Origin: Escherichia phage vB-Eco-KMB26
Length of the DNA: 64,000 bases
Sequence record: OR539218.1
Reading direction: 5' to 3' (one strand)
Part shown: in pieces, positions 7,135 through 7,817 of the stretch
How positions within the stretch are numbered: the stretch's first letter is position 1
How the letters are laid out: the number at the start of each line of letters is the position of its first letter
Made by a program: the position numbers and the translations under genes
The notes under the pieces: model-generated
What the model was told of the DNA's origin: nothing
What the model saw: only the letters and a program-made list of their open reading frames with translations
Databases searched by the model: none

Positions 7135-7163
7135 ATAGTATCACTACCCTATCTAAAAGTAAA
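7135..7163 (-). promoter_or_regulatory. T4 early promoter embedded in a palindrome (PeSL-like)
   Basis: Reverse strand TTTACT-N17-TACTAT (plus atagta 7135-7140, agtaaa 7158-7163); -10 sits inside inverted repeat agggta..taccct. Confidence 0.55.
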
Positions 7164-7164
7164 C

Positions 7165-7398
7165 TTATTTTTTACGAAAAATTGATTTATTTTCTGCTGC
7201 CCATTTTTCAATAACTGCAGCAGGACCAGTAACAACAATTTTATCACCGTAATCTTCTGCGGCGAGTTGACCGAAATTATCTAATGCATCACGAAGAACT
7301 CCATGAGGCATTTCACCCATTTTATCTTTCTTGCCAGTGTAAATAAACTCAACTTTTACATCAGCAGTTTCAGCAATAAATTCTTGGTAAGTTTTCAT
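7165..7398 (-). CDS. ipI: Internal protein I-like head protein with capsid-targeting sequence MKTYQEFIAE
   Basis: ORF track begins MEIKM (7410); the second ATG at 7396-7398 gives the canonical IP leader MKTYQEFIAE; position between tRNAs and 57B matches T4 ipI. Confidence 0.75.
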   Translation of the reverse strand: MKTYQEFIAETADVKVEFIYTGKKDKMGEMPHGVLRDALDNFGQLAAEDYGDKIVVTGPAAVIEKWAAENKSIFRKK

Positions 7399-7432
7399 TT
7401 TGATTTCCATTTGGTTTTGTTTTGATAGGGTA

Positions 7433-7461
7433 ATAGTATCACAACTAAAACCCTATGTAAA
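7433..7461 (-). promoter_or_regulatory. T4 early promoter (PeSL-like) upstream of ipI
   Basis: Reverse strand TTTACA-N17-TACTAT (plus atagta 7433-7438, tgtaaa 7456-7461); flanked by inverted repeat ataggg..ccctat. Confidence 0.55.
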
Positions 7462-7486
7462 CAACTTTGTGAAATTATTTTAAATC
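7454..7486. repeat. 33-bp exact direct repeat, copy 1 (spans stop codon of the IP-like gene and the -35 of the ipI promoter)
   Basis: tatgtaaacaactttgtgaaattattttaaatc, identical to 7785-7817. Confidence 0.9.
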
Positions 7487-7732
7487 TTCTAATCGTTTCT
7501 TCATCTTAGAGCCATTTTTAGCAATTTCTCCTGCATCGGAGCATAATGCTAAAAGTGCTTTAACTTTAGTTTGGTCTCCTTTAAAAGATGAAGGATCGAC
7601 CGCAGCAGCAAGTTCTTTAATACGAGAGAAAAGACGCTCAGCTTCAGCTAAAGCCATTCCAAGCTTTACTTCCATACCGTGGGAAGATTCAGTAATAGTA
7701 GTTTTTGTAGCAAACTCTTTGAAAGTTTTCAT
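7475..7732 (-). CDS. Internal-protein-like protein with capsid-targeting-like leader MKTFKEF..ITE
   Basis: 85-aa ORF, ATG with AGGAAAATAAAA SD; N-terminus resembles the IP leader; ends ..EDLK like 57B (..DDLK) inside the shared 33-bp repeat. Confidence 0.6.
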   Translation of the reverse strand: MKTFKEFATKTTITESSHGMEVKLGMALAEAERLFSRIKELAAAVDPSSFKGDQTKVKALLALCSDAGEIAKNGSKMKKRLEDLK

Positions 7733-7763
7733 TTTTATTTTCCTAATTAATTTTGATGTGGTA

Positions 7764-7792
7764 ATAGTATCACTACCTCATCAGTATGTAAA
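7764..7792 (-). promoter_or_regulatory. T4 early promoter (PeSL-like) upstream of the IP-like gene
   Basis: Reverse strand TTTACA-N17-TACTAT (plus atagta 7764-7769, tgtaaa 7787-7792); -10 within palindrome ggtaatagtatcactacc. Confidence 0.55.
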
Positions 7793-7817
7793 CAACTTTG
7801 TGAAATTATTTTAAATC
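7785..7817. repeat. 33-bp exact direct repeat, copy 2 (spans stop codon of 57B and the -35 of the next promoter)
   Basis: tatgtaaacaactttgtgaaattattttaaatc, identical to 7454-7486. Confidence 0.9.

Follow-up and report, generated by a model that had tools for sequence, protein, structure and literature searches.

Early promoter junctions with repeated sequence blocks as probable exchange points of internal protein gene cassettes in the T4-like Escherichia phage vB-Eco-KMB26

Results

Organization of the locus

In this report, we describe the repeated, promoter-bearing junctions that separate internal protein (IP) genes in a stretch of 64,000 nucleotides (hereafter the window) of Escherichia phage vB-Eco-KMB26 (OR539218.1), a Tequatrovirus (T4-like) genome. 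A 1.4-kb query taken around the locus matched 772 phage records, the top identity being 99.6%. The genes of the region are located on the minus strand, in the transcription order gene 1 (dNMP kinase), 57A, 57B, ip5, ip6, trna.4, trna.3, trna.2 and the tRNA cluster. Four of them border the junctions in question:

7806-8264, minus strand: gene 57B, coding for Acb1, an anti-CBASS 2H phosphodiesterase; ends ..DDLK-stop; fixed upstream anchor of the cassette array
7475-7732, minus strand: ip5, internal head protein cassette gene, 85 aa; starts MKTFKEFATKTTITE (capsid-targeting sequence), ends ..EDLK-stop
7165-7398, minus strand: ip6, internal virion protein cassette gene, 77 aa; starts MKTYQEFIAE
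6921-7106, minus strand: trna.4, 61-aa predicted membrane protein (PHROG 1692); fixed downstream anchor of the cassette array

The 57B product matched Pfam PF23474 Acb1 (E 6e-60) and the Acb1 structure PDB 7t26 (E 1e-61), and the gene is annotated as 57B in relatives. The ip5 product was assigned to PHROG 3499, internal head protein (E 1e-49), and that of ip6 to PHROG 8111 (E 1e-52); the former gene is named ip5 in the fFiEco06 and T2 annotations, the latter ip6 in that of fFiEco06. Both products share with T4 IPI an N-terminal capsid-targeting sequence (MKTFKEF..ITE in ip5, MKTYQEFIAE in ip6). In T4 internal proteins the targeting sequence ends at an [L/I]-x-E site of the prohead protease (gp21), and the matching predicted sites would be ..FIAE/T in ip6 and ..TITE/S in ip5 (cf. 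..TITE/A in T4 IPI; the slash marks the end of the targeting sequence). The body of ip5 was found in 251 phage records and that of ip6 in 221, while approximately 215 records, T6 among them, span at least 80% of the two-cassette (ip6+ip5) query. The pair found in the window between Acb1/57B and trna.4, ip6+ip5, is of the T6 type.

With regard to annotation, several GenBank records label the 57B/Acb1 gene as 'RNA ligase' or 'hypothetical'. The IP cassette array is placed directly downstream of this counter-defence gene, acb1 (57B), which makes the region a small anti-defence island. An additional in-frame ATG is present at 7410, upstream of ip6 (7399-7410; MEIKMKTYQEF..); relatives are annotated from the ATG at 7398, keeping the canonical MKTYQEF N-terminus.

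Early promoters and exact repeats at the junctions

Each intergenic region of the array contains a promoter-like sequence, as follows:

7733-7805, minus strand: junction 3 (57B>ip5); TTTACA 7792-7787, 17-nt spacer, TGn, TACTAT 7769-7764; leader AAAATTAATTAGGAAAATAAAA
7399-7474, minus strand: junction 2 (ip5>ip6); TTTACA 7461-7456, 17-nt spacer, TGn, TACTAT 7438-7433
7107-7164, minus strand: junction 1 (ip6>trna.4); GTTTAC 7164-7159, TACTAT 7140-7135

The consensus scan detected TTTACA-17-TACTAT with the TG extension at 7792-7764 and 7461-7433, and a regular-expression scan with a looser pattern added the third site, GTTTAC..TACTAT, at 7164-7135. T4 early promoters share an extended UP/-35/TGn/-10 consensus (PMC2988021), and on this likeness each junction is predicted to act as a strong early promoter of the T4 type (A/T-rich upstream region, GTTTAC(A), TGn, TACTAT). 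Elements of the same type are annotated as promoters at the 57B>ip5 and ip5>trna.4 junctions of the Lutter record. Read on the coding strand, the junctions are pieced together from a small number of blocks: first the tail of the upstream gene and TTTCACAAAGTTGTTTACA(TA), then a 5' arm of variable sequence, the core GTGATACTATTACC and the complementary 3' arm, and finally ATCAA and a leader particular to the downstream gene.

Superimposed on this anatomy are exact repeats:

7454-7486, unstranded: 33-bp repeat copy A; last 3 codons and stop of ip5, A/T-rich upstream region, -35
7785-7817, unstranded: 33-bp repeat copy B; last 3 codons and stop of 57B, A/T-rich upstream region, -35
7126-7144, unstranded: 19-bp block GATAGGGTAATAGTATCAC with an exact second copy at 7424-7442; second homology block, a crossover here removes ip6

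The 33-mer, TATGTAAACAACTTTGTGAAATTATTTTAAATC, occurs in two exact copies where 0 are expected by chance. On the coding strand it reads GAT TTA AAA TAA (D-L-K-stop in both ip5 and 57B), followed by TTTCACAAAGTTGTTTACATA, which includes the -35. A 14-bp core, GGTAATAGTATCAC, is found exactly at 7131, 7429 and 7760, with no fourth copy in the window; when up to 2 mismatches were allowed, the window gave 5 matches against 0.41 expected, those with two mismatches, at 49839 and 51618, looking like chance. The repeat search grouped the junctions into a 71-nt family, with 86% identity between copies 2 and 3 and 61% between copies 1 and 2, and the identity inside this unit is blockwise (33 exact, 11 diverged, 14 exact). 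The period of 331 bp corresponds to the ip5 coding sequence (258 nt) plus the 57B>ip5 spacer (73 nt). The initial annotation had proposed three early promoters with a common core, two identical 33-mers spanning the last codons and stop (..DLK-stop) of the IP-like gene and of 57B together with the next -35, and a unit of ~330 bp made of the IP-like gene and its promoter; the promoter scans, the three exact copies of the 14-mer, the coding-strand reading and the measured period agreed with all of these.

Gene 57B ends with -DLK in every lineage examined. We considered the EDLK-stop tail of ip5 as a copy from 57B and dropped this idea, as a divergent 80-aa ip5 homologue (locus L028) ends RLEDLK-stop beside a different promoter, so that the ip5 tail is old or native. 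The 12 coding nucleotides within the 33-mer are not clearly a copy.

Cassette content and position of the joints in related phages

For comparison we used 51 related loci, of which 15 are annotated GenBank loci and 36 were retrieved from IMG/VR with the 57B protein as query (our own locus numbers, L007 and so on, are given where needed). The number of IP-type genes between 57B and trna.4 ranged from 0 to 5, in the whole set as well as in the IMG/VR loci. This alignment across T4-like phages, recommended in the initial annotation as a check, revealed different cassettes between the same kinds of junction:

ip5, ip6: this window, fFiEco06, T6, L016
ip5, ip7: T2
ipI: RB55 (species Tequatrovirus T4), HY01, Shinka, CE1
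ip5 only: Lutter
ip6 only: ECO07P4, AV122, L047
no cassette: A6-6; Jiaodavirus Klebsiella phage (L052)
90-aa IP, ip7: IME340, Pu-Krd-SF5
up to five different IPs: other genera

A longer array within the GenBank set is that of Shigella phage CM8 (L007), with ip8, ipI and ip5 and a partial duplication.

The exact position of the joints was examined by in-silico deletion. Removal of 7454-7784 (331 bp), equivalent to a crossover inside the 33-mer, gave a 1013-bp product which aligned without gaps, at 1004/1013 positions, to the natural ip6-only relatives ECO07P4 and L047; the cassette insertion or exchange by homologous recombination put forward initially is supported by this match. A 298-bp deletion between the 19-mers at 7126 and 7424 produced a Lutter-like locus (1013/1042), and both deletions combined an A6-6-like one (691/712). 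One identical 65-bp junction block, from GATTTAAAATAA to CCCTATCAA, is present in ip5+ip6, ip5-only, ip6-only and empty loci. The occurrence of all four presence/absence combinations of ip5 and ip6 around one joint is a classic signature of recombination. The breakpoints of relatives are not confined to the 33-mer and are also found in the -10 core and at the boundary between the 3' arm and the leader. Hybrid junctions with non-pairing arms were noticed in T2 (ip5>ip7), L038 (57B>ip90) and IME340 (ip>ip), and since their arms are not complementary, other crossovers probably took place inside the -10 core.

Two rearranged loci were observed in the course of this comparison. In CM8 the order over 295-2726 is ip8, ipI, ip5, truncated 57B', ipI, ip5, 57B, with a ~1-kb tandem duplication and a novel joint in which the -10 core GTGATACTATTA is fused directly to mid-57B. 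The ip90>ip102 junction of L032 (~4177-4254) has an internal ~20-bp tandem duplication, GATACTATTACCTCATCAA, doubling the -10 and the 3' arm.

Palindrome around the -10

The -10 of all three promoters had been described initially as lying inside a palindrome, and this description held to a different extent at each of them. At junction 1 a perfect 11-bp stem, TAGATAGGGTA / TACCCTATCTA (7124-7134 / 7145-7155), holds the -10 in its loop. The stem of junction 2 (ATAGGGT / ACCCTAT, 7425-7431 / 7450-7456) is 7 bp long, with an 18-nt loop, and alone is not beyond chance, being equalled in 17/100 shuffles. The 10-bp stem of junction 3, TGATGTGGTA / TACCTCATCA (7754-7763 / 7774-7783), has one internal mismatch (7759 vs 7778): position 7759 is T here and A in close relatives (GATGTGGTA vs GATGAGGTA), which breaks one pair, whereas the stem of the relatives is perfect. 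The folding z-scores were -4.25 for junction 1 (0/200 shuffles), -3.0 for junction 2 and -2.1 for junction 3. The palindrome is thus weaker in the window itself, its third copy being mismatched and its second a stem of just 7 bp. All three stems are rich in A/T and contain 3 or 4 G-C pairs.

In a wider survey, the longest stem of each of 83 unique junctions of at least 45 nt was compared with shuffles; stems were scored per sequence, since the lineages differ in where the palindrome sits with respect to the -10 and a common alignment would have been fitted to the structure. In 61% of these junctions the perfect stem around the -10 reached at least 7 bp, and the mean longest stem was 7.2 bp against 5.1 in shuffles. 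There were 40 distinct 5'-arm sequences in this set, with arm pairs such as GATAGGGTA / TACCCTATC, GATGAGGTA / TACCTCATC, GGTAGGACTA / TAGTCCTACC, AGGTCTATAG / CTATAGACCT, GATGGGATAA / TTATCCCATC and GTGTAGGGATA / TATCCCTACAC. Pairing preserved by compensatory change in this way points to selection on structure, and indicates that the hairpin is likely to be under such selection. Mismatches in the coding-strand stems were 9 G:T vs 3 A:C, a count made of few independent events and with some spurious stems included.

Transcripts initiated at a junction's own promoter would lack the 5' arm, so an RNA hairpin would be possible solely in read-through transcripts. A late-promoter-like sequence, TATAAATA, is located on the minus strand at 8847-8854, inside gene 1 and upstream of 57A; late transcripts starting from it would cross 57A, 57B, the IP cassettes and the hairpins. 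IPs are required late, for head assembly.

Discussion

At this locus the junctions have a common anatomy, the content of cassettes between them varies, and natural breakpoints are located within the repeated blocks. From these joints we infer that they arose by homologous recombination and not by another process. On the grounds of sequence comparison, we are fairly confident that the repeats represent intergenic junction elements of the T-even ipI-type internal protein locus which would serve as recombination points for cassettes. In such an element the A/T-rich upstream region overlaps the last codons of the previous gene, and a short A/T-rich palindrome brackets or overlaps the -10; next come a conserved leader and the similarly conserved codons for the capsid-targeting sequence (MKT[F/Y][K/Q]EF..), with which the following IP gene starts. 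The blocks recurring at every junction (33 bp, the 14-19-bp -10 core, ATCAA, leader plus targeting sequence) offer short homologies, by way of which the very active recombination/replication machinery of T4 may remove, add or exchange entire cassettes, either within one genome or between co-infecting relatives. T4 has been shown experimentally to delete and amplify DNA via much shorter homologies (PMC9391042).

Both the phenomenon and the locus are already known from the literature, and the recombination model is the published one for this locus and no new idea; what we add is a clean worked example, with exact joints and all four ip5/ip6 combinations. Promoter early stem-loop elements (PeSLs) were described as composite elements in which an A/T-rich stretch with a stop codon is followed by an early promoter, by a stem-loop that in many cases overlaps the -10, and by a Shine-Dalgarno sequence and the initiation codon of the next gene, and were proposed as recombination sites for accessory-gene cassettes, giving indels and replacements (Arbiol et al. 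2010, PMC2839356). They are reported for the phages phi1/RB49, PST/T4 and nt-1/KVP40 (PMC2839356; Comeau et al. 2014, PMC4122927). According to Arbiol et al. (2010), "PeSL-like sequences" were seen at two variable T-even IP loci by Repoila et al. (1994), and these are regarded as analogues rather than homologues of PeSLs because of their T4 early promoters and weaker, A/T-rich stem-loops, a view restated by Comeau et al. (2014). As far as the 1994 elements are characterized in that account, nothing substantive distinguishes ours from them: the locus is the same (57B to trna.4), as is the gene family (ip5, ip6, ip7, ipI, all with the capsid-targeting sequence), the T4-type early promoters, the A/T-rich stem-loops and the proposal of IP shuffling. 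All five features of the IP-locus elements were found here, that is the locus, the promoter sequence, the A/T-rich stem-loop, genes with the targeting sequence, and variable content with conserved junctions. With PeSLs the architecture is shared (a promoter with an A/T-rich upstream region and an adjacent or overlapping stem-loop between the stop and start of accessory open reading frames). However, PeSLs use the plain sigma-70 consensus, whereas the elements of the window are of T4-early type; the stem-loops of PeSLs are stable and of terminator-like strength, often polyG then polyC, which the A/T-rich stems of the window are not; and a further feature ascribed to PeSLs is excision of the flanked cassettes as mini-circles during infection.

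As to the genes carried, IP proteins are injected inhibitors of GmrSD-type (type IV) restriction enzymes, as shown for Ip1, Ip2 and Ip3 (PMC12373910; PMC3012670). T4 IPI, IPII and IPIII share with ip5/ip6 the N-terminal capsid-targeting sequence with its [I/L]-x-E motif, and ip5 and ip6 occupy the locus of ipI, but the mature parts are unrelated in sequence. The locus illustrates how T4-like phages quickly change injected anti-restriction proteins, by whole-gene swaps at short conserved promoter junctions beside acb1, which is of relevance to host-range prediction and to the engineering of therapy phages.

Several observations weigh against recombination at the junction elements as the whole story. 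First, at least 19 specified positions of the 33-mer (TTTCACAAAnnTGTTTACA) recur at an unrelated early promoter, 4268-4286, so the exact identity of the 33-mer is not purely a recombination scar and appears to be in part functional constraint on a strong promoter. Secondly, several other genera have IP cassettes 0-8 nt apart without a promoter, and their content still varies; IP shuffling in general therefore does not depend on junction promoters, and in distant lineages homology of the leader and targeting sequence, or illegitimate events, must also contribute. Thirdly, for any given event insertion cannot be told from deletion. Finally, with respect to the hairpins, a scan of 6100-9300 gave no intrinsic terminator at the three junctions, and no T-run follows the hairpins, which are succeeded by CAAAA.. 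or CTACTG..; with neither a T-run nor a terminator-like site, their reading as intrinsic (Rho-independent) terminators was abandoned. The late-promoter-like TATAAATA suggests that late transcripts reading through the locus must cross the hairpins, which also speaks against strong termination.

The first of these points could be taken further, to the claim that nothing but selection for a very strong early promoter maintains the identity of the exact repeats, which would then be uninformative on recombination history. We find this unlikely. Extended consensus is indeed common to T4 early promoters, AAAGTTGTTTAC is found at ~196-185, and blockwise identity in the 71-nt unit is what would be expected of promoter sub-elements. 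On the other hand, identity extends 12 nt into two unrelated coding sequences and over non-consensus positions, and the ip6-only, ip5-only and empty natural loci are joined exactly inside the blocks, which argues against selection as the sole explanation. Moreover, constraint keeps the homology in place and recombination exploits it, so these two explanations are not competing and not mutually exclusive.

The second point leads to the possibility that the main driver of exchange is the conserved leader together with the capsid-targeting codons (ATGAAAACnT..GAATT..), or else illegitimate recombination, and that the promoter/hairpin elements are passengers. Loci L034, L035, L039 and L025, in which IP genes are joined by 0-8 nt, are promoterless (TGAATGAAAAC..) and differ in content, and the same 90-aa IP body starts with MKTFKEFINE in IME340 and with MKTYQEFIAE in Pu-Krd-SF5. 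The mappable Tequatrovirus joints, however, precede the leader and are found in the 33-mer, the -10 core or ATCAA, and this account seems doubtful to us.

Regarding the hairpin, late read-through probably crosses it, which would favour attenuation or RNA stabilisation over full termination. Its most likely role would be to attenuate or stabilise read-through RNA, and at the same time to constitute one of the homology blocks used at the junctions. A more active role may also be imagined, in which the palindrome is a DNA-level signal starting recombination (e.g. through cleavage of a cruciform or hairpin by endonuclease VII or another structure-specific nuclease). Pairing kept through ~40 arm sequences in several T4-like genera, with many compensatory arm changes, could reflect such a signal, and in the CM8 57B' fusion and the L032 20-bp duplication the joints are exactly at the -10 core. 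Nevertheless, some natural hybrid junctions persist despite lost pairing, and the 9 to 3 ratio of G:T to A:C, coming from few events, leans, if anything, to sense-strand RNA structure. We regard this role as improbable, and assign a similarly small chance to the palindrome being an active structure-specific recombination signal that would make 57B-trna.4 an integron-like acquisition site for injected anti-restriction proteins beside acb1. An active part of the conserved palindrome in recombination is the sole potentially interesting question raised here.

An assembly or collapse artefact as the source of the 331-bp periodic repeat, an assembly duplication having been named initially as one of the findings that would overturn the scheme, can be dismissed with near certainty, since the copies flank different unique sequence and the ~215 independently sequenced records, T6 included, have both the gene content and the repeats in common with the window.

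Additional observations

Apart from the IP locus, a perfect 46-bp tandem duplication (2.1 copies) was noticed at 4182-4278 of the window. It doubles a whole T4-type early promoter (GTTTACA-17-TACTAT), with the two promoters on the minus strand at 4274-4245 and 4228-4199. Of the 533 phage records matched, all full-length relatives listed, the 99.4% identical fFiEco06 included, align over just ~245-260 nt of the 301-nt query, as a single copy would. The promoter duplication is either strain-specific or an assembly artefact.

A short stretch of the IP locus is shared with more distant phages. Approximately 117 Klebsiella phage records have 71 bp in common with window positions 7075-7147 at 93% identity (1501-1571 in L052), covering the trna.4 start, the leader and the -10 with its palindrome; the rest of the 1.4-kb query was undetected by megablast in these records. 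In L052 (Jiaodavirus), the sole Klebsiella locus inspected, the trna.4 homologue comes directly after 57B and is preceded by the same TTTCACAAAGTTGTTTACA..GTGATACTAT promoter.

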